A stretch of DNA of 49,556 nt from a bacterium (GTDB lineage: Bacteria; DRYD01), in the NCBI GenBank assembly GCA_039630415.1, contig JBCNVB010000024.1, forward strand, positions 1-49,556. The letters run 5' to 3'. The notes beneath the pieces were generated by a model. That model worked only from the letters and a program-made list of their open reading frames with translations. It made no database searches and was not told the origin of the DNA. Within the stretch, counting starts at the first letter, position 1, and each line of letters opens with the position of its first letter. Positions 10,903 through 24,293 of the stretch are shown piece after piece. The position numbers and the translations under genes were made by a program.

Positions 10903-12223
10903 TGGTTATCTCCTTGTGGTTTTCTATAGTTATTTCTGAAATGTTAGCTCCTAAAGAGTACAGTTTTTGAGTTATATTTTCATATCCCCTGTATATTTGA
11001 TAAGTATTAGTAATGATTGATTTTCCGTGGGCTATAAGACAAGCAGTTATAATAGCTGCACCTCCGCGAATATCGGTAGCCTTTACGGGAGCACCTTTAA
11101 GAGTTTTTCCTCCTCTTATAATAGCAAACTTGTTGTTTACTACATCTATATCTGCTCCTAATCTTAATAACTCACCTGTATAAACAAATCTATCATCAAA
11201 CAAGTTTTCCCTTACAACAGATATACCATTTATCGAAGTGGCGAGAGCCACTATTTGAGGTTGAAGATCTGTTGGAAAATTGGGGTAAACGTCTGTAGAT
11301 ACCTCAAAAGAACTTAACTCTACATCAGAATCAATTTCTATTTGATCACTATAAAACTTTATCTTTATACCTATCGAACTCAGTACGTCCCATAACTTAG
11401 ATAGCATAGTTTTTACTGAATAATTTGGATTGTTATTATCTTGAATAATTATGTGTCCTCTGGTTGTACAGGTTGCAATTGCGAATGTTCCTGCTTCTAT
11501 TCTGTCTGGTATGTTGTCTACTATCACCAAATTTTCTGGATTTGGTTTTGATGGATGTATCTTTAAGCATCTTTGTTCAGTAAAATATTCTATTTTAAAG
11601 CCATTCATTTTGAGAAAATCCCATAGGTAAGTTATTTCTGGTTCTATAGCTACGTTATAAAAAGAAATGGTTTTTTGAATTTGGTTGGATACAAATAATC
11701 CTAGGAAGGTAGAATTTTTAGTAGCTCCTACACTTGGGATCCAAAAATTAATCTCAGGGTTAACATTATGTGGATCAAAATCTTTGACTATGACGTTTCC
11801 AGAGTCTATGTCAACGTTAAAACCTAGCTGTTTTGTTATCCATAGATGCATATCTATTTTTCTATTTCCTATTAAGCATCCACCTGGGAAAGGGATAATG
11901 GCTTTTTCAAACCTATAAACTAGAGCTCCGAGAAGATCAAAAGAAGCCCTCATTTTGGAAGCTAATTCCCAGCTTATTTCATACCTGTTTGCACTTCTTG
12001 AATCTATCGTGAGTTCCCAACCGTTATAATCATACTTACAGCCTATACCTTCCAAGATCTTCAGCATAGTATGAATATCTTCTATGTTTGGGACATTTCT
12101 TATTTTAGTGACGTTATTTAGTATTATACTACAAGCTATAAGTGGTAAAGCACCATTTTTGGAACCTTGAGGAGAAAAGTATCCTCTTAGAATGTTTGGT
12201 CCTTCACAGACTATGTTTTTCAT
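10892..12223 (-). CDS. murA: UDP-N-acetylglucosamine 1-carboxyvinyltransferase
   Basis: GSKN, MRAS, PGGCLIG (catalytic Cys loop), PDRIEAGT, FPTDLQ, TDIRGG, RGYE. Confidence 0.95.
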   Translation of the reverse strand: MKNIVCEGPNILRGYFSPQGSKNGALPLIACSIILNNVTKIRNVPNIEDIHTMLKILEGIGCKYDYNGWELTIDSRSANRYEISWELASKMRASFDLLGALVYRFEKAIIPFPGGCLIGNRKIDMHLWITKQLGFNVDIDSGNVIVKDFDPHNVNPEINFWIPSVGATKNSTFLGLFVSNQIQKTISFYNVAIEPEITYLWDFLKMNGFKIEYFTEQRCLKIHPSKPNPENLVIVDNIPDRIEAGTFAIATCTTRGHIIIQDNNNPNYSVKTMLSKLWDVLSSIGIKIKFYSDQIEIDSDVELSSFEVSTDVYPNFPTDLQPQIVALATSINGISVVRENLFDDRFVYTGELLRLGADIDVVNNKFAIIRGGKTLKGAPVKATDIRGGAAIITACLIAHGKSIITNTYQIYRGYENITQKLYSLGANISEITIENHKEITNVY

Positions 12224-12461
12224 CCGTGTCTATCAGTACTAACACACTGTTTGATTGTATTTTTATAACTCCTTGTTTACACTTGTATTTTATAATCTCA
12301 TTATCAATGGTTTTAATAACTACCATAGAATTTTTGTTTATGGAGCTCATAAAGTCTGTATGATAGGGATATATAATTAGTTCACCTTCTCCTGTATCAA
12401 TTTTGAGTTCTCTTATCTTCAAAATTTTCGAAAAATATGGAGTACTTACTCTACACTCCAT
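12204..12461 (-). CDS. atpC: F1 ATP synthase epsilon-like subunit, N-terminal domain only
   Basis: STP, GEGELIIYPYH (compare EGELGILPGH) and GVIKIQSNSVLVLID (compare GFLEVxxNxVTILAD); atpC-murA synteny. Confidence 0.7.
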   Translation of the reverse strand: MECRVSTPYFSKILKIRELKIDTGEGELIIYPYHTDFMSSINKNSMVVIKTIDNEIIKYKCKQGVIKIQSNSVLVLIDTDEKHSL

Positions 12462-12625: not shown

Positions 12626-14362
12626 ATGAGTGCTGTAAATAGTTTAAACATTCTGAACAATCAAATTATCAACGACAATATTCTTGTTAAAGACAATGTT
12701 CAAAACAACCAGGTAGCTAATGTTAATCACGAAAGTGATCAAAAAAGGGAAAGTATTCTTACGGATCTATTAGGTATAGATTTATCTAAAATAGATTTCA
12801 AAATAGATTTGCCTAAAATAGATTTGTCAAAATTAGATTTATCCAAGTTAGATATAAAGAAGATGAGTAACAGTCTAGTGGGAGCTGTATTAGGTGGGGC
12901 GTTGGCTTACATTACATTCAGTGCTGCCCTAATACCTATAGTTTTTGTTTGTCAACTTATACTCAGTGGAGGGTTGCCAATTAGAATACCACCAGAAATT
13001 GTTAAGATCCTAACTTCAATTTTGGAATTGTCAATACAATCGCTCAAATATCTTCCACCTGTAGCAGGAGCTATTGCAGGAGCTAAAAATATTAATAAAA
13101 TTGCTGAAAATGTTCAAAATCCCGCTAATCAAGCTGAAATCAGTGATCAAATTGACCACTTAAAAATAGCTTTTGAAAAATTTAAAAACAGTCAATCTTT
13201 GGATGATCACATTATTAATGGTTTTAATTTAGGTACTATTTGGGGTAAAGAGACGAATGCCAAGGCTGGTGAAATAGGTAGTTTACCTTTGGCTTTAGCA
13301 ATGGGTGCAGTTATGATGGCTCCGCTCGCTTTACTAGTTGCAAGTTTATTAGCAGGTAAGATGAATATATGGCTTGCACTCGGAACAGGTTTTCTAGCTT
13401 CATTACCTTTGGCTACAAAAACCTTTAGTGCTGTAAAGAATTTTGCAAAACAAGCTTATAGTTTAATAGGGGGAGCTATATCTGGAGTTGGTGGTGCAGC
13501 ATGGGGATATATATCCAAACTCATCAAAACTATTAAAGAAGGATACAAAGAAGAGGAACAAAAAGATGAGTTCCAACAAAACAGCCCCTATAAAACTCTA
13601 GGACTGCAACATTTGTTTGAAACTGGTGGAAAACTAACTGAAAACTTTATAAAAGGAACTTCTGATGTTCTGTCTTTTTCTTCTCTTATCAATAATATTT
13701 TAACTCGCAACCCTACGGGACTAGGAGTGATATCTTCTATTATTGCTGGTACGATCAAATCTTTTGAGGGATCTTCTACGCTTATACAAGCCGCTGCCAA
13801 CAATAGACCCCAAGATTTTAACAAAGGAATATTCAGATTACTTACAGGTTTGTCTTTATTGTTTAGCTTCTTAGCACCACTTTTTGGACCTATGGGAATA
13901 CTTGTTTCAAGTCTAATATCACTACTCTTCATGGCTCTTGAAAAAATCTCTAGTTTGAAGCAAGATCAAAATCTACAAGATAATCAAAACCAAAATGATG
14001 AAAAAGTCAAGCAAGAAAAGAATGAAAAACTTAAAAAAAGTTTTGCTATTGGGGTGGCTATTAGAGAATTTGTAAGTAGTTTAGGAAGTTTAGGTAAATT
14101 CTGGATGGGATGGGATTCTCTTTTTGGAGGTAATTATGGCGGATTAACATCCATATTTGGATTAATTGGATCAACCAGAGATATACTACAGGGTTCTAAA
14201 TTGATGCAACTTGCGGTAGAAAGAAGTAACCTTAAAATAGGCATAAAGGGTTTAATGAACGTAATAGGTGGTATTTGCCTAGGATTAGCTGCTATTGGGA
14301 TGGGTAAAGTTTTTGGAATTGCTGCTGTTGTTATAGAACTAATTAAGCTTATGCTAGCATAA
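12626..14362 (+). CDS. Hypothetical 578-aa Gly/Ala-rich hydrophobic protein (translocator/pore-former-like); paralog of the next gene
   Basis: GGGGG RBS, N/Q-rich N-terminus with no signal peptide, IDLSK repeats, many Gly-rich hydrophobic helices, duplicated C-terminal module. The functional label is inference. Confidence 0.8.
   Translation: MSAVNSLNILNNQIINDNILVKDNVQNNQVANVNHESDQKRESILTDLLGIDLSKIDFKIDLPKIDLSKLDLSKLDIKKMSNSLVGAVLGGALAYITFSAALIPIVFVCQLILSGGLPIRIPPEIVKILTSILELSIQSLKYLPPVAGAIAGAKNINKIAENVQNPANQAEISDQIDHLKIAFEKFKNSQSLDDHIINGFNLGTIWGKETNAKAGEIGSLPLALAMGAVMMAPLALLVASLLAGKMNIWLALGTGFLASLPLATKTFSAVKNFAKQAYSLIGGAISGVGGAAWGYISKLIKTIKEGYKEEEQKDEFQQNSPYKTLGLQHLFETGGKLTENFIKGTSDVLSFSSLINNILTRNPTGLGVISSIIAGTIKSFEGSSTLIQAAANNRPQDFNKGIFRLLTGLSLLFSFLAPLFGPMGILVSSLISLLFMALEKISSLKQDQNLQDNQNQNDEKVKQEKNEKLKKSFAIGVAIREFVSSLGSLGKFWMGWDSLFGGNYGGLTSIFGLIGSTRDILQGSKLMQLAVERSNLKIGIKGLMNVIGGICLGLAAIGMGKVFGIAAVVIELIKLMLA
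12776..12862 (+). repeat. Degenerate 15-bp coding tandem repeat (I/L-D-L-S-K), about 6 copies
   Basis: IDLSK IDFK IDLPK IDLSK LDLSK LDIKK; DNA units resemble ATAGATTTATCTAAA, and one unit is 12 bp. Confidence 0.9.
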
Positions 14363-14390: not shown

Positions 14391-15695
14391 ATGATTAGTA
14401 AAATTATTCAAAACAATATAAAACATACAAATAATGATGGAGTGAACAAAAGGGTAAATGATTCAAATGGTAAAAACAACAAAGAAGACATACAGACATT
14501 GAAAATAAAATCCGATCAAGTTCAAATATTAAATCAGGATGATAGCAATATAAAAAATAAACAAATTATTACGGAGCAAGATATATTGTCATTTGGTTTT
14601 CTAGGTTTTACTATATCTACTGCTGCATTACCCTTTGTTGCAGGAGTACTAACAGGATTTTGTTCTCTTATTTTGGGTTTAATTTTAGGTTCTGGGTTGT
14701 TTAATACTCTTCCTGCTCATATTATACAAAAATTGCATTTAATTTATGGAATTTATCTTGGTTTGCTTGCTGTTGGTACACCATTTGCGGGATTCAAAGC
14801 TGGTCAGGAAGCTGCAAAACTAATTTTTTCAGACAAAACTGAGGAAAACTACAAAAAAGGTATTGAATATTTGAAAAAACTTAAGCCGTTGGAATTTGAA
14901 TTTGCTTGGGATTCTATTAATTTTGGGACTAAACTAGGTGATATTATAGGTAGAAATGTTTCATCTAGTGTGAGTTTACCGACTAGTATAGCTACCAGTA
15001 TAATAGCAGGTGCTCCTATTGCTTATGCAGTTAGTAAGCTTATTCCCGGTAATTTAGCTTTAGCTACAACTGCTGGAGTATTAGCTTCCTTACCTGTGGT
15101 GATCAAAGCATATAATGCTACTAAAGAGGTATCTAAAGATGCTCATGCTTTACATAATTCAATTATTTCTGCTGGACTTTTATCAATTGTTGGTATAATA
15201 GGTGAGATAGCCCTAGCAATCGTGAAATTAATCGATGTATTATTGAACCCAAGTAAGCTATGGAATCAGAATAAAGATCAAAGCGATAAAAATCAGACAG
15301 AAGGGGAATATTCGGTTATTGAAGCTGTTAATAAGATCAGTAAGAATTCGTTTAATTTACTTAAAAGCTTTTCTAAGGGGGTAGCTGAAGTGTTTTCAGT
15401 AGCAACTCCCATAACTAATCTTATATTGGGCAAAATTACACCAGTTAACGTAGCTTTGTCAACATATAGTGGTATTGTAAAATTATTAAAAGGTTTGAAA
15501 GATAATTCTCCAACAAAGTTAATTGATATTCTAAGTGGTGCAAGTTTGATAATATCCCCTATAACTGGTTTATTTGGTCCTATTGGAATAGCTTTGTCTG
15601 CAATTATAACCCTTTTACTTGAAGTCCTAAAAGATCTATATAACCTACAACAAAAGGTGAATCAAAAGGTAAAACTAGGTAAAGGATATAACTAA
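14391..15695 (+). CDS. Hypothetical 434-aa Gly/Ala-rich hydrophobic protein; paralog of 12626-14362
   Basis: AGGAG RBS and N/K-rich N-terminus. Shares NxGTxxG, SLP, GxLASLP and LFGP(M/I)GI with the upstream protein. Confidence 0.8.
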   Translation: MISKIIQNNIKHTNNDGVNKRVNDSNGKNNKEDIQTLKIKSDQVQILNQDDSNIKNKQIITEQDILSFGFLGFTISTAALPFVAGVLTGFCSLILGLILGSGLFNTLPAHIIQKLHLIYGIYLGLLAVGTPFAGFKAGQEAAKLIFSDKTEENYKKGIEYLKKLKPLEFEFAWDSINFGTKLGDIIGRNVSSSVSLPTSIATSIIAGAPIAYAVSKLIPGNLALATTAGVLASLPVVIKAYNATKEVSKDAHALHNSIISAGLLSIVGIIGEIALAIVKLIDVLLNPSKLWNQNKDQSDKNQTEGEYSVIEAVNKISKNSFNLLKSFSKGVAEVFSVATPITNLILGKITPVNVALSTYSGIVKLLKGLKDNSPTKLIDILSGASLIISPITGLFGPIGIALSAIITLLLEVLKDLYNLQQKVNQKVKLGKGYN

Positions 15696-15713
15696 AGTAT
15701 AGGGGGTGAAAAA

Positions 15714-15941
15714 ATGGAAATAAGAAATCAAAATGTTAATCAAAACCCAGCGCAAAATGCACCAATATCGGGAAGACCATTCTTCCCATTCCCTATAGAA
15801 AATCAGGAAAAAAATAACCAAGAAACGCAAGATGTACAACAAAATATACAAGATTACACTACTGATAGGGTAGTAATACAGAATAATAATCCAAATAGTA
15901 TGCCTTTCTTCCCGTTTCCAATAGAGAATCAGGGTAGATAG
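15714..15941 (+). CDS. 75-aa N/Q-rich peptide with a duplicated PFFPFPIENQ motif
   Basis: Strong RBS AGGGGGTGA; fills the gap between genes; the two motif copies differ only at synonymous sites. Confidence 0.85.
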   Translation: MEIRNQNVNQNPAQNAPISGRPFFPFPIENQEKNNQETQDVQQNIQDYTTDRVVIQNNNPNSMPFFPFPIENQGR

Positions 15942-15946
15942 GTTTA

Positions 15947-16954
15947 ATGAGAATAGACCAATTAGACATATTAAGGGGAGCTGCGATCTTATTTATGGTC
16001 GTGGCTAATTATTCTCCATACTATATTGAAAAACCATCGGAAATTTTGAGAATAATGTATACATTCGCAGCTCCTCTTTTTGTTTCTATAACCGGTTTCC
16101 TAATGTATAAAAACAAAATTGAAAAAGACTATAATGTGAACTACTTTGTTGTTAGGGGTGTTTTGCTAATAATTACTGCTAGTTTACTTGAAATGATTGG
16201 TTATAGAATCTATCCTTTGATGTCTGTTGATGTACTTTGCTTGATAGGAAGCTGTACTATTCTCTTGCCAGTTTTGCATAAAGTATGGAAATATTTTAAC
16301 TTGTGGAGTATTTTGATCATATTTATACTCACTATTTTTTTGCAGAATTTATTTGGATATAATCAACAAGCATATGAAATTACGATAGGTACTCCTATAA
16401 CCTTGCAGGAATACTTTGTAATTACTATCAAACAATTTTTCATTGATGGATATTTCCCTATATTTCCTTGGGTTGGGATATTTATGCTGGGGTTTGCATT
16501 CTATGATCAATTATACAAAGAAATAGTTATCAAAAACAAAATGGCTATGATATTTTTATTTTTTGTATTTAGTTTTATACTGGTTAACACGGAAAGATAT
16601 ATAAGGGATGGTTATGCAGAATTATTTTATCCGCCAGATTTTATTTTTCAGGCTTGGGCTACTTGCTTTTTATTTATCTGTTTTTATATGATCAACTTTA
16701 AAAATTACTACGTCCAGATAATAGGTAAATCATCGCTATTTTTCTATATTTTCCATTGCTTATTTGTAGAGTATATCCTGCAAAATATAAATTACACCAA
16801 ATACATTTTGAACAATGATTTTCCTCATATAAACTTTATTATCTCAGTTGTAATAACTTTCATACTAATGCTCTTAATCTCTTTTTATTTTGAATATCTA
16901 AAATCAAAGAAACCTAATATGCCTTTCATAGTTAAGTTTTTCATAGGTTCATGA
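15947..16954 (+). CDS. Membrane acyltransferase-like protein (HGSNAT/DUF1624-like)
   Basis: RIDQLDILRGAAILFMVVAN, AAPLF, DVL, FPIFPW, IGKSSLFFYIFH; about 9-10 TM segments. Confidence 0.8.
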   Translation: MRIDQLDILRGAAILFMVVANYSPYYIEKPSEILRIMYTFAAPLFVSITGFLMYKNKIEKDYNVNYFVVRGVLLIITASLLEMIGYRIYPLMSVDVLCLIGSCTILLPVLHKVWKYFNLWSILIIFILTIFLQNLFGYNQQAYEITIGTPITLQEYFVITIKQFFIDGYFPIFPWVGIFMLGFAFYDQLYKEIVIKNKMAMIFLFFVFSFILVNTERYIRDGYAELFYPPDFIFQAWATCFLFICFYMINFKNYYVQIIGKSSLFFYIFHCLFVEYILQNINYTKYILNNDFPHINFIISVVITFILMLLISFYFEYLKSKKPNMPFIVKFFIGS

Positions 16955-18030
16955 TCCATAAGAAGATATTGTTGCTCTACTTATGGAGTAATCTTAATTT
17001 TTTCAAAATAAGGCGGTTACTAGAAAGATTTGGTAATCAGGATCTTGACAAAAAAATTGATGAGGTATATAATTACGCAAATATAGATCAAAAACAAGAT
17101 GTTATTCTTGGAGCGTACAACATAGATTATAACATGATAAAGGATAGGATGAAGGTTTTCATTGATCAAGATTTTCCTGATTATTTGTTTGAAAGTGACT
17201 GTGGTTTAGTTTTTTATAAGGGAAACTGGGATTTTACAGATAGGAAGTATATAAGGGTGTCAATAGTTGGTTCTAGAAAACCTCTAAACATTTCCTCGGA
17301 GTTTGTTAGTAAGCTTTTGTTTTACTTGTCTGATATTAGTAATATTGTTGTTGTAAGTGGGTTGGCAACTGGAATAGATACGATAGCTCTTGAACAAGCG
17401 ATAAATAACAATATCGGAGCTACAGCTATACTGGGTAATGGAATAGACTACTATTACCCCTATCATAACAAAGTTTTACAGACTAATCTTTTTAAGAATG
17501 GTCTAGTTTTTTCTGAGTACCCACCTAATCATCCTCCTAGAAAATACTACTTTCCTTATAGAAATAGGTTAATTGCAGCAATGAGTGATGTGGTAGTTGT
17601 TGTTCAAGCCTCTGAAAAGAGCGGAAGTATAATAACTGGTAAATATGCTCTGGAGATGGGAAAAACTTTAATCGTTCCTTATCTTTCTAATACCGAAGAT
17701 TTTGAAGGATCAAAGCAGCTGATAAACTCTGGAGCAATTCTAATATCCAAACCTCAGGAAATCTTAAACTATCTACCATTAAATTTCTTAAAATCCAATA
17801 CAAAAAGCCATATGCAAAACTTACAAAAGACACAAAATTATCAAGAATATCAAGACGAAATAATCAAAATAGTAAGATTAAATCCCGGTATAACTCTAGA
17901 AAAAATTGCACAAATTACGGAGATTAATCTACCAGAACTAATAAAAATTGTTACAGAGCTTGAACTACAGGGAAAATTACAACTAGAATTTGATTACTCT
18001 CTTTTTGTAATTGATAAAAATATAGACTAA
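16951..18030 (+). CDS. dprA: DNA-processing protein DprA
   Basis: SIVGSR, VSGLATGID, SEYPP, FPYRNRLIA, SGSIIT, and a C-terminal winged-helix segment (ELELQG). Confidence 0.95.
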   Translation: MIHKKILLLYLWSNLNFFKIRRLLERFGNQDLDKKIDEVYNYANIDQKQDVILGAYNIDYNMIKDRMKVFIDQDFPDYLFESDCGLVFYKGNWDFTDRKYIRVSIVGSRKPLNISSEFVSKLLFYLSDISNIVVVSGLATGIDTIALEQAINNNIGATAILGNGIDYYYPYHNKVLQTNLFKNGLVFSEYPPNHPPRKYYFPYRNRLIAAMSDVVVVVQASEKSGSIITGKYALEMGKTLIVPYLSNTEDFEGSKQLINSGAILISKPQEILNYLPLNFLKSNTKSHMQNLQKTQNYQEYQDEIIKIVRLNPGITLEKIAQITEINLPELIKIVTELELQGKLQLEFDYSLFVIDKNID

Positions 18031-18084: not shown

Positions 18085-18468
18085 ATGTGTAAAAAAGCTA
18101 TGAAGGGTATGATAAATATTTCAGCAACGGCATTTTTCATACTAATAATAGCTTTCTCACTTATATCTTTTATGGGTTTTATAAGTAATTTTTCAACGAG
18201 TGATAGGTTATATGTTTTTTGGCAAGGATATCATCTAGCAGACTCTTTCCTAGTAAAAATTCAAACGAATAACCTATCCGGAGATCTGATTGTTAGAAAC
18301 GTACCTTATCAGGTAGGAACTCCACAGGAAGTAGGAAGAGCTTACATGAGTAGCAATAATATAATAATAGTTTCTCCTCACCCCTATAAATATCAAACAA
18401 GAGTCAGAATAGTTTTTTCCTCCGGTAGTATACAAGAATACCAAGTACTGAATATACCAACGAATTAG
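18085..18468 (+). CDS. Hypothetical protein with a prepilin-like N-terminus (minor pilin/pseudopilin-like)
   Basis: GGAGG RBS; basic leader KKAMKG followed by a single hydrophobic helix and ...QGYHLADS; lacks Glu at +5. Confidence 0.5.
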   Translation: MCKKAMKGMINISATAFFILIIAFSLISFMGFISNFSTSDRLYVFWQGYHLADSFLVKIQTNNLSGDLIVRNVPYQVGTPQEVGRAYMSSNNIIIVSPHPYKYQTRVRIVFSSGSIQEYQVLNIPTN

Positions 18469-22853: not shown

Positions 22854-24293
22854 GTGATATTAATGAACACCATAGGCCCAGTAGGAGGAGGTTATCATTA
22901 TCCAACCCAAAAAACCACTGAAGATAAGGTTGAAAGAGTTATATTTACTGGAAATAGGGAAAAGATTGAGAAAATTCTCAAGACTTTGAATGCTGGAAGA
23001 ATAATTGAAGACTTGGGTAGTGGATTTGTTCTTGCAGAAGTTAAGAAAGAAGCACTACCTAATATATACAAGTCTCTACCAGAAGGAATGAATGTTTTCA
23101 AAGATGAAAGAGTTAAGCTTGTTGAACCAGAAGAACTAAAAAATCTAAAGCAACTAGAGAAAATGAAAAATACTCAAGAAAACGATACAGAAAATCAAAC
23201 TTTACCAAGAAAGAATGTTACTTTGCAAATAACTGGTGCTGACAAAGTCCATGAAATGGGCTATAAGGGACAAGGTATAGTCATTGCAGTTATAGATACT
23301 GGTGTTGCTAAACATCAAGATTTTGGTGATAGAATTACTTACTTCTTTGATGCTACTTCAACTGGTTATACTAATCCACATGATGGAAATGGACATGGTA
23401 CACACGTAGCAGGTATTGCAGCAGGAGATGGACAATTCAAAGGTCTAGCACCAGCAGCAGAAATATGGGGAATAAGGGTACTAAGTGACGGCGGTTACGG
23501 CTATACTTCAGATATCATAAGAGGTATAAACAAGGTAGTTGAGAAAGCTAAAGCAGAAGGTAAGAAAGTGGTTGCTAACATGAGCTTAGGCGGATATGCT
23601 TTCAAACCTTGGAATCAAGATCCATTGGCTTTAGCAGTTGAAAAAGCACTTCAAGAAGGAGTATATTTCGCAATTGCAGCTGGTAATAGTGGACCAAGAC
23701 CAAACACTGTTGGAACACCAGCAATAGCTCCCAATGCAATCACTGTAGCAGCCTATCAAGACTATAAAACCGAAGAACTTACTGATGATGATATAGCAAG
23801 ATTCTCTTCCAGAGGACCGGTTAGCAATGCACCGGATGAAACTTCAAAACTAAAGCCTGACATATCTATGCCAGGTGTTGCTATATGGGCAGCAGTTTCA
23901 GAAGGAAGTGAACTATATAGACTCGGTAAACAGGGAAGGATCCCAATGACAGAAGATGGTAAATATGTAGCTATATCAGGAACTTCTATGGCTACTCCAG
24001 CTGTAGCAGGAGCTATAGCACTGATTCTCAACGCTAACCCTAACCTAACACCACAGCAAGTTAAGGAAATCATAATCAAACATGGAATAAAGCTAACAAA
24101 GGTAGATCCAACAGACAACAAACCATACGATAACTTTGATCAAGGAGCAGGATTGGTTAATGTATACGAAGCAGTAAAAGAGGCAATAAGTTTATTACCA
24201 AAACCTAGTCCAGAACCTAGTGAACCTGCTCCAGAACCGAACCCAGCTCCAACTCCAGAAAATCCTTCTACTCCAAATACATATCTTTCGTAA
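22854..24293 (+). CDS. S8 subtilisin-like serine protease (AprX-like) with no signal peptide and a Pro-rich tail (likely start is the ATG at 22863)
   Basis: Catalytic triad in VIDTG, HGTHVAG and GTSMATP; AAGNSG, FSSRGP; GAGGAGG RBS precedes 22863. Confidence 0.93.
   Translation: MILMNTIGPVGGGYHYPTQKTTEDKVERVIFTGNREKIEKILKTLNAGRIIEDLGSGFVLAEVKKEALPNIYKSLPEGMNVFKDERVKLVEPEELKNLKQLEKMKNTQENDTENQTLPRKNVTLQITGADKVHEMGYKGQGIVIAVIDTGVAKHQDFGDRITYFFDATSTGYTNPHDGNGHGTHVAGIAAGDGQFKGLAPAAEIWGIRVLSDGGYGYTSDIIRGINKVVEKAKAEGKKVVANMSLGGYAFKPWNQDPLALAVEKALQEGVYFAIAAGNSGPRPNTVGTPAIAPNAITVAAYQDYKTEELTDDDIARFSSRGPVSNAPDETSKLKPDISMPGVAIWAAVSEGSELYRLGKQGRIPMTEDGKYVAISGTSMATPAVAGAIALILNANPNLTPQQVKEIIIKHGIKLTKVDPTDNKPYDNFDQGAGLVNVYEAVKEAISLLPKPSPEPSEPAPEPNPAPTPENPSTPNTYLS
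24198..24275 (+). repeat. Pro-rich low-complexity coding repeat (PKPSPEPSEPAPEPNPAPTPENPSTP)
   Basis: X-Pro dipeptide repeats at the protease C-terminus. Confidence 0.85.

Follow-up and report, generated by a model that had tools for sequence, protein, structure and literature searches.

What a hydrophilic protein of 75 residues gains from carrying the same proline- and phenylalanine-rich decapeptide twice is the question raised by the locus described here, which lies within a 49,556-nt stretch of bacterial DNA (hereafter the window). The first-pass annotation of the window had read the repeated PFFPFPIENQ either as a bivalent short linear motif that bridges two partners, perhaps the two paralogues encoded upstream, or as a two-core RiPP precursor of a Pro/Phe-rich peptide. 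The genome concerned comprises 1.40 Mb at 31.9% G+C and is 89% complete. The only sequencing run listed as containing the window DNA is a DNA run of a hot-springs metagenome, which is a possible source, no RNA run being listed, and one homologue from the same genus is labelled Candidatus Calescibacterium sp. MAG; the section of PMC4791363 that deals with Calescamantes-like populations describes them as low-G+C heterotrophs of streamer communities at ~80 °C.

The small gene and its two motif copies

The small gene forms part of a compact plus-strand run that consists of two unannotated genes, here designated memA and memB, the small gene itself, an acyltransferase gene and the DprA gene, with gaps of 28, 18 and 5 nt followed by a 4-nt overlap (Table 1). 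The decamer occurs twice in the open reading frame at the positions and with the codons that had been claimed for it, and the two copies differ at five bases, all five in third positions and all five silent, while the sequences flanking the copies are unrelated, again as described in the initial annotation. By the method of Nei and Gojobori this corresponds to five differences over 5.67 synonymous sites (pS 0.88, near saturation) as against none over 24.33 non-synonymous sites, and the simulated probability that five random changes would all be silent ranges from 8.5e-5 (kappa 1) to 2.6e-4 (kappa 3). Since the silent sites are close to saturation and not a single replacement has accumulated, the motif duplication is old and the peptide has been kept by selection. 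The selection that had been proposed for the whole decamer is borne out for a core of eight to nine residues, [R/M]-P-F-x-P-F-P-I-E, and not for the trailing N-Q, which is replaced by Q-K, D-K or N-D in relatives.

In the six-frame translation of the 1.40-Mb genome P-F-x-P-F-P is matched three times; two of the matches are the window copies, and the third, located on contig C10, runs antisense to a dnaX-like gene and is taken by us as a chance occurrence. The pattern search in the genome and the copy count in relatives, both of which the first-pass annotation had suggested, find no motif gene in this genome besides the one in the window and give one, two or three copies per protein. A corresponding search at the DNA level in 11 genomes returned 22 matches, 19 of them in motif genes, compared with 11 matches for a reversed control pattern.

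Table 1 Features of the locus and of related loci. Positions refer to the window unless another locus is named.
Feature	Position	Strand	Remarks
85-aa ORF	12204-12461	-	Partial ATP synthase epsilon match
memA	12626..14362	+	578-aa conserved protein; four hydrophobic stretches of ~30-45 residues; candidate partner or module core
memB	14391..15695	+	434-aa divergent memA paralogue, 28% identity (BLASTP); between memA and the small gene
Shine-Dalgarno site GGGGGTG	15702..15708	+	5 nt before the small-gene ATG
Small gene	15714..15941	+	75 codons plus stop; hydrophilic 75-aa protein
Motif copy 1	15777..15806	+	R + core P-F-F-P-F-P-I-E; aligns with copy 1 of genus orthologues
Motif copy 2	15903..15932	+	M + core P-F-F-P-F-P-I-E; 3 residues from the C-terminus
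Acyltransferase_3/HGSNAT-type membrane acyltransferase	15947..16954	+	PF07786 1.3e-15, PF01757 3.1e-12; starts 5 nt past the small gene
DprA gene	16951..18030	+	PF02481 4.1e-52; overlaps the acyltransferase stop by 4 nt; ends the tight run
127-aa ORF	18085-18468	+	N-terminal hydrophobic segment
S8 subtilase	22854-24293	+	Peptidase_S8 domain only; Pro/Glu/Ser-rich low-complexity tail of ~30 residues
Por-operon motif gene, sister genus	L011 1240-1560	-
Por-operon motif gene, sister genus	L006 1198-1563	-
Por-operon motif gene, sister genus	L023 1501-1818	+
Tail-less small-membrane-protein genes	L079 2413-3691	+	Two in tandem
Wider-family membrane-protein gene	L216 1378-1836	+	G000 contig C23
Phage virion structural protein	L095 1252-1926	+	phrog_14543, 1.1e-30

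A lineage-restricted family of small proteins

The small open reading frame is a genuine gene, as is evident from its Shine-Dalgarno site, from homologues in the same frame and from the constraint on its codons. A profile HMM constructed from seven homologues matches nine of the 11 genomes available for the phylum (seven of this genus, G000 included, three of a sister genus and one of another family). The two genomes that give no match are 71% and 73% complete, and in one of them, G002, the contig starts inside the acyltransferase gene that follows the small gene, so that the small-gene locus is cut. A GGAGG- or GGGGTG-type Shine-Dalgarno sequence is present within 25 nt upstream of all 12 motif genes examined, and dN/dS falls between 0.15 and 0.37 in seven ortholog pairs of the small gene. 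The same profile finds seven matches among 1.84 billion representative proteins, all of which are members of this small-protein family, and 20 among 5.8 billion proteins, namely the window protein and 19 further members of metagenomic origin. No family match was obtained for the small protein in Pfam, NCBIfam, PADLOC or PHROGs (in NCBIfam 0 families at E<=1), a scan against Rfam showed no RNA family at the small-gene site, a promoter and terminator scan found no more there than in shuffled sequence, and a search of full-text literature for the motif strings retrieved no bacterial report.

The members of the family are 56–125 aa long and come in two forms. In this genus the proteins have 56–75 residues, begin in a similar way, contain one or two copies of [R/M]-P-F-x-P-[F/A]-P-I-[E/D] and have a charged linker that cannot be aligned, whereas those of the sister genus and the related metagenome proteins have 62–125 residues, a similar start, one to three copies of P-F-[F/L]-P-F-P-P and, after the motif copies, a conserved C-terminal domain of ~45 aa. 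Neither a signal peptide nor a hydrophobic segment can be discerned in the small proteins. The homologues might have shown the decamer to be no better conserved than the linker, which would have spoken against its selection; they decisively show otherwise, with agreement in 85 of 108 residue pairs (79%) for the motif columns as against 39 of 206 (19%) for the linker columns, as counted over four orthologues with G005, a near-duplicate of G006, and the single-copy G001 left out. The motif is accordingly a short and well conserved element in a poorly conserved, low-complexity context, as is characteristic of multivalent short linear motifs, which are an already known kind of element; to our knowledge, well-documented bacterial examples of short linear motifs are few, and most of them are found at replication or division hubs. 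The start M-[D/E]-[I/L/K] recurs in the small proteins, in memA proteins and in the tailed membrane protein described below, not in the memA or memB of this genome, and was rejected as a common signature, as the pattern had been picked post hoc and is shared by 5.2% of the 1228 long ORFs in the genome.

Association with memA

Across the lineage the motif is associated with memA. The memA proteins are 578–640 aa long, the orthologues in eight other genomes are 45–54% identical to the one of the window, and memA is present in exactly the nine motif-bearing genomes of the 151 searched; outside the motif-bearing lineage none was found in 185,579 species genomes or in the metagenome collection. This co-occurrence reflects a single clade and hence one evolutionary event, and is therefore suggestive only and of no statistical weight. 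Neither memA nor memB has a significant match in Pfam, NCBIfam, PADLOC or PHROGs. A search with memB at E<=0.001 among 5.8 billion proteins retrieved only memB itself, which is found in this genome only, and in four other members of the genus memA directly precedes the small gene.

A motif gene is the next one after memA, or the second one as in this window, in 13 of the 15 memA loci with readable downstream DNA (nine genomes and six metagenome loci), a count in which the 13 include cases of a fused motif and the 15 are not independent, because several of the metagenome loci are near-copies of genome loci. The two loci where the adjacency fails are L079 and G001; in the latter memA and the small gene are on different contigs and a single, N-terminal motif copy is left. 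Among the genomes of this genus the small gene is accompanied by the acyltransferase gene in six of six and by memA in five of six, which makes the acyltransferase a rival candidate for the partner here; in the sister genus the acyltransferase gene is not found next to motif genes.

The hydrophobic stretches of memA are of hairpin length with a central Pro or Gly, and the polar regions between them span ~90–150 residues and lie at about residues 122–216, 254–400 and 445–537. Judged on hydropathy alone, both memA and the tailed protein of the sister genus would be membrane proteins. The AlphaFold2 model of memA is all helical and of low confidence (pLDDT 50), and a Foldseek search of the PDB with it found nothing at E<=0.001; likewise, a sequence search of the PDB with memB gave nothing below E=3. 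The nearest clusters of memA and memB in the ESM Atlas (SseF-type effectors, VopQ, HopW, RTX) were dismissed, as their scores of 0.75–0.81, with 0.78–0.81 for the nearest, the SseF-type effectors, correspond to chance level.

As to the memA proteins themselves, a nearly invariant block, G-S-L-G-K-F-W-M-G-W ... Y-G-G-L-T-S-I-F-G, is located at approximately residues 486–512 (relatives L051, L052, L053, L054, L056, L057, L058 and L061). The memA of this genome does not have the C-terminal tail of 15–60 aa which the other memA proteins carry.

The motif in the sister genus

All three sister-genus genomes contain a fourth motif copy, which is situated in the C-terminal tail of a 238–257-aa protein whose helices are hydrophobic and rich in glycine and whose gene lies immediately downstream of memA and ahead of feoAB. 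Four metagenome loci share the motif-tailed membrane protein after memA, its length being 234–263 aa over genomes and loci together. It bears no detectable relation to memA and has tail-less relatives elsewhere in the genomes, the present one included. The motif has consequently been reused on a membrane protein unrelated to the small protein, and its copy number is labile (1–3). In the AlphaFold2 model of the tailed protein, likewise poor (pLDDT 52), a small three-stranded sheet is predicted for residues 34–55 (pLDDT 72–80), together with a disordered tail.

The free small protein of the sister genus is encoded in the por operon and not at memA. In three of three genomes the small gene, here with three motif copies and the ~45-aa domain, is inserted between porA and porB of a 2-oxoacid:ferredoxin oxidoreductase (Table 1); in the present genome only 9 nt separate the two por genes (contig C26, 32530-34674), and no gene intervenes. 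Taken together, the motif family is new and restricted to this lineage, and it is linked by synteny and by a natural fusion to an unannotated membrane protein.

The wider family to which the tailed protein belongs consists of proteins of 150–200 aa in which a short beta element is followed by glycine-rich hydrophobic helices; several are encoded per genome, sometimes in tandem, with examples in L216, on contig C7 of G004 and on contig C46 of G009. The memA-adjacent member of the sister genus is the only one with a motif tail. At locus L079 two tandem tail-less genes of small membrane proteins follow memA and are in turn followed by feoA.

Motif residues and specificity

Counting from the first proline of the core, P1, F2, P4 and P6 are invariant in all 23 motif instances of the nine genomes. 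Position 7 is always Ile in this genus (11 of 11 instances) and always Pro in the sister genus (12 of 12). The residue x in the eight multi-copy genomes reads F/F, S/S, S/S, H/H, V/C, four times F, four times F and four times L; it is thus identical across the copies of a genome, even when these use different codons, with the V/C of G003 as the exception, and in the single-copy G001 it is Met. Two further variations should be mentioned: the four Leu residues at x in G008, the fused copy among them, are encoded by four different codons, and both motif copies of G004 are without F5. Recent gene conversion does not account for the four Leu codons of G008 or for the saturated silent sites of the window copies, and the simplest reading is that all motif copies in one cell would face the same binding pocket. 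Covariation of memA with residue x does not discriminate, as five memA columns track x in the trio with x = F and four do so in a control trio.

A docking model and its alternatives

The reading that we prefer, with a probability of roughly 55%, is that the small protein is disordered and cytoplasmic and that its multivalent short linear motif docks on a lineage-specific partner, probably the memA membrane module. The elements under selection would be only a few N-terminal residues and the one to three copies of [R/M/E]-P-F-x-P-F-P-[I/P]-[E/D/K]. The proline at every third position suggests a polyproline-II-like stretch with one phenylalanine face, and each copy might dock in a pocket of the partner; two or three copies would then confer avidity or bridge several partner molecules, so that the copy number could tune avidity and the small protein could tether the memA module or gather it into clusters. 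One copy would, in the sister genus, reside on the C-terminal, cytoplasmic tail of the membrane protein whose gene adjoins memA. The hairpin length of the memA stretches and their central Pro or Gly suggest that all polar regions lie on one side of the membrane, and if the stretches are indeed hairpins, the polar parts of memA and the tail of its neighbor would both face the cytoplasm, where the small protein is probably located as well. Of the candidates, the memA module is predicted as the most likely partner. The idea of a bivalent motif bridging partners is retained in part: the conservation of the motif over the linker, its one to three copies, the adjacency to memA in 13 of 15 loci and the tail fusion agree with it, while the suggestion that the two upstream paralogues are the partners does not hold for the pair, since only the 578-aa protein is conserved and the 434-aa one occurs in this genome alone.

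Structure prediction and domain searches gave the following results. A complex predicted from a 9-row alignment of memA and a 6-row alignment of the small protein scored 0.00 in a run made without controls and carries no weight either way. Searches of the genome for WH1, SH3_3 and GYF domains gave no match (for WH1 the control genomes gave none either, which makes that test a weak one); any receptor would accordingly be of a new type, or else the motif may be no protein ligand.

In a broader role the motif would be the ligand of a housekeeping factor of general function, for example a prolyl isomerase, a chaperone, a protease adaptor, a degron reader or an export or insertion factor; the small proteins and the tailed membrane protein would then be no more than clients or regulators of this factor, and memA would not be the partner. 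The motif does appear in three gene contexts, namely downstream of memA, in the tail of a membrane protein and inside the por operon between porA and porB, G001 and L079 are without the adjacency to memA, and x-Pro-Phe resembles the classical substrate core of prolyl isomerases, a likeness that counts in favor of such a factor. We nevertheless consider this unlikely, given that the motif is restricted to a single family in a single phylum and to one or two genes in each genome, fewer than would be expected of a factor with many clients, and that residue x and position 7 change coordinately by lineage, whereas housekeeping factors usually evolve slowly. Those lineage-specific residues are also relevant to the proposal that the motif serves as a membrane-interface anchor, a Phe-rich polyproline stretch inserted in the lipid head-group region with an affinity that grows with the number of copies. 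Two or three Phe per motif, charged flanks, the near absence of hydrophobic residues from the small proteins outside the motif and the position of the motif on a membrane-protein tail and beside membrane-protein genes would all suit an anchor. Entire lineages, however, have x replaced by Ser or His, or F5 by Ala or deleted, which would weaken hydrophobic partitioning, while the prolines are invariant, a pattern that agrees better with a protein recognising shape than with insertion into lipid; together with the lineage-wide switch between Ile and Pro at position 7, which argues for a specific pocket, this makes an anchor quite improbable.

Two further readings would place the function of the gene in its processing or its translation. 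As a multi-core RiPP precursor, the small protein would have its Pro/Phe cassettes excised by a protease, for instance an S8 subtilase, to yield a linear or cyclic peptide. The cassette is repeated in variable copy number, as in the multi-core precursors treated in sections of PMC5934393, and an S8 protease gene is located 6.9 kb downstream in this genus, yet nearly everything else speaks against processing, and we regard it as very improbable. The acyltransferase, DprA, 127-aa ORF, GatB, DJ-1, UbiA and inositol-1-phosphate synthase genes intervene between the small gene and the S8 gene, the por-operon context of the sister genus is without a protease, and the sister-genus motif loci that were read contain no S8 gene. 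A maturase is likewise absent from the vicinity, the other window ORFs scanned, 38 in one scan plus those of a further scan, being housekeeping genes or without a Pfam match, and the only radical-SAM gene, of the lysine-2,3-aminomutase type, is 14 kb away. The search for ATP-grasp ligases, which the first-pass annotation had called for, found none among the scanned window ORFs of this 89% complete genome, and the best genome match to the MvdD-type model (TIGR04184) is located on another contig and reaches 31.3 bits against a cut-off of 475. Neither a match of the small protein to a RiPP precursor family nor a leader, double-glycine site or exporter gene was seen, and no PatA/PatG-type clustering with a heterocyclase or prenyltransferase was found at the window locus. 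The same motif ends a 240-aa membrane protein, and the repeated unit is the conserved part and the flanks are variable, which is the opposite of cyanobactin-type precursors. The two-core precursor is on these grounds not supported, whereby one false lead is removed for natural-product mining. In a regulatory leader peptide, ribosome pausing on Pro/Phe would control translation of the acyltransferase, and it is true that copy 2 ends three codons before the stop, that the acyltransferase gene starts 5 nt further on and that the two genes remain together in six of six genomes of the genus. The distance to the acyltransferase gene, though, is 5 nt here, 9 nt in G003 and ~45–110 nt in G006, G005 and G004, the one copy that remains in G001 is the N-terminal one, at a large distance from the stop, the site has no conserved terminator or RNA family, and the sister genus employs the motif in other contexts and even inside a membrane protein. 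With a spacing that extends from 5 to ~110 nt and a motif in use elsewhere, a translational leader is highly unlikely.

Docking on the memA module thus remains the preferred reading, and it can be extended to a more specific form. The motif and a pocket on the memA module may constitute a private, co-evolving peptide-receptor code of this hyperthermophile lineage, in which x and position 7 act as the specificity letters; the free small protein would then be a multivalent tether that clusters memA complexes, and in the sister genus the C-terminal domain and the position between porA and porB would allow it to recruit pyruvate:ferredoxin oxidoreductase to the membrane platform. In this full form the proposal is tentative and, in our estimate, rather unlikely, but if true, it would represent a bacterial scaffold of a new kind that organises membranes by means of a polyproline-type motif. 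The strong selection on the motif, its one to three copies, the natural fusion and the lock-step residues within each genome should make the partner experimentally findable, and the motif provides a first handle on memA as a conserved, unannotated membrane protein of an uncultured hyperthermophile lineage.

Resemblance to known motif systems

The small protein shares with the microviridins and marinostatins the nature of a small ribosomal peptide and a P-F-F start, followed in the copies of this genome by [I/L]-E after another two to three residues; precursors with several cores are known from that class as well, according to the relevant part of PMC5934393. The leader in those systems is recognised by the ATP-grasp ligases MdnB and MdnC, and its motif PFFARFL is given as a fixed alpha-helix in the corresponding part of PMC7823629. 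The match to this leader that had been proposed on the basis of spacing does not extend to the relatives, in which S, H, V, C, M or L takes the place of the last residue of 'PFF'; in addition, the Pro residues at positions 4 and 6 would be incompatible with a helical leader, and a TxKxPSD-type core is absent from the 75-aa protein and from its homologues.

Another parallel is offered by the carboxysome protein CsoS2, which is similarly disordered with short conserved repeats, variable linkers and a varying copy number, as portrayed in portions of 10.1101/708164 and PMC11365436, and by analogy with CsoS2-type scaffolds we propose multivalent binding to a structured partner. Unlike CsoS2, the proteins described here are only 56–125 aa long and have one to three repeats of a different, Pro/Phe motif, no microcompartment genes are nearby, and the partner is probably membrane-bound. 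The sister-genus sequence F-P-F-P-P-E also invites comparison with the ligands of EVH1 domains. Proline-rich ligands of EVH1/WH1 domains are of the FPxxP class with the consensus FPxφP and include the repeats of Listeria ActA. The likeness consists of repeated, acidic-flanked F-P-x-P-P-like units, of which the sister-genus form fits FPxφP; the differences are that the last residue in this genus is Ile and not Pro and that nothing points to a eukaryotic host for this bacterium of hot springs. In type III secretion translocators, a hexapeptide P/V-x-L-x-x-P is bound by TPR chaperones. The present motif is comparable in having six residues with Pro at 1 and 6 and in being tied to hydrophobic-hairpin proteins, but it is carried on a separate small protein or on a C-terminal tail, its key residues are aromatic, and no TPR chaperone gene is adjacent.

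A viral scan with the 7-residue motif of the sister genus gave at least 118 loci, with a single match in each of the 80 listed. In L095 and ~17 similar loci (L102, L107 and L114 among them) the 7-residue Pro/Phe string, with acidic residues before it, is part of a phage virion structural protein; the contigs have 47–51% G+C and the match was set aside as a coincidence.

Other open reading frames around the locus

The 127-aa ORF downstream of dprA is without a family match and also immediately follows dprA in four further genomes of the genus; in G001 a shorter, 66-aa ORF occupies this slot, and the copy in G002 is cut by the contig end. The S8 gene ends a gene block, extending from dprA to the inositol-1-phosphate synthase gene, that is common to three other genomes of the genus. 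On the other side of memA, the 85-aa ORF matches only the N-terminal beta-sandwich of the ATP synthase epsilon subunit (PF02823, 1.6e-8); it adjoins murA and mreB and is not part of an atp operon, and this placement is kept across the genus.
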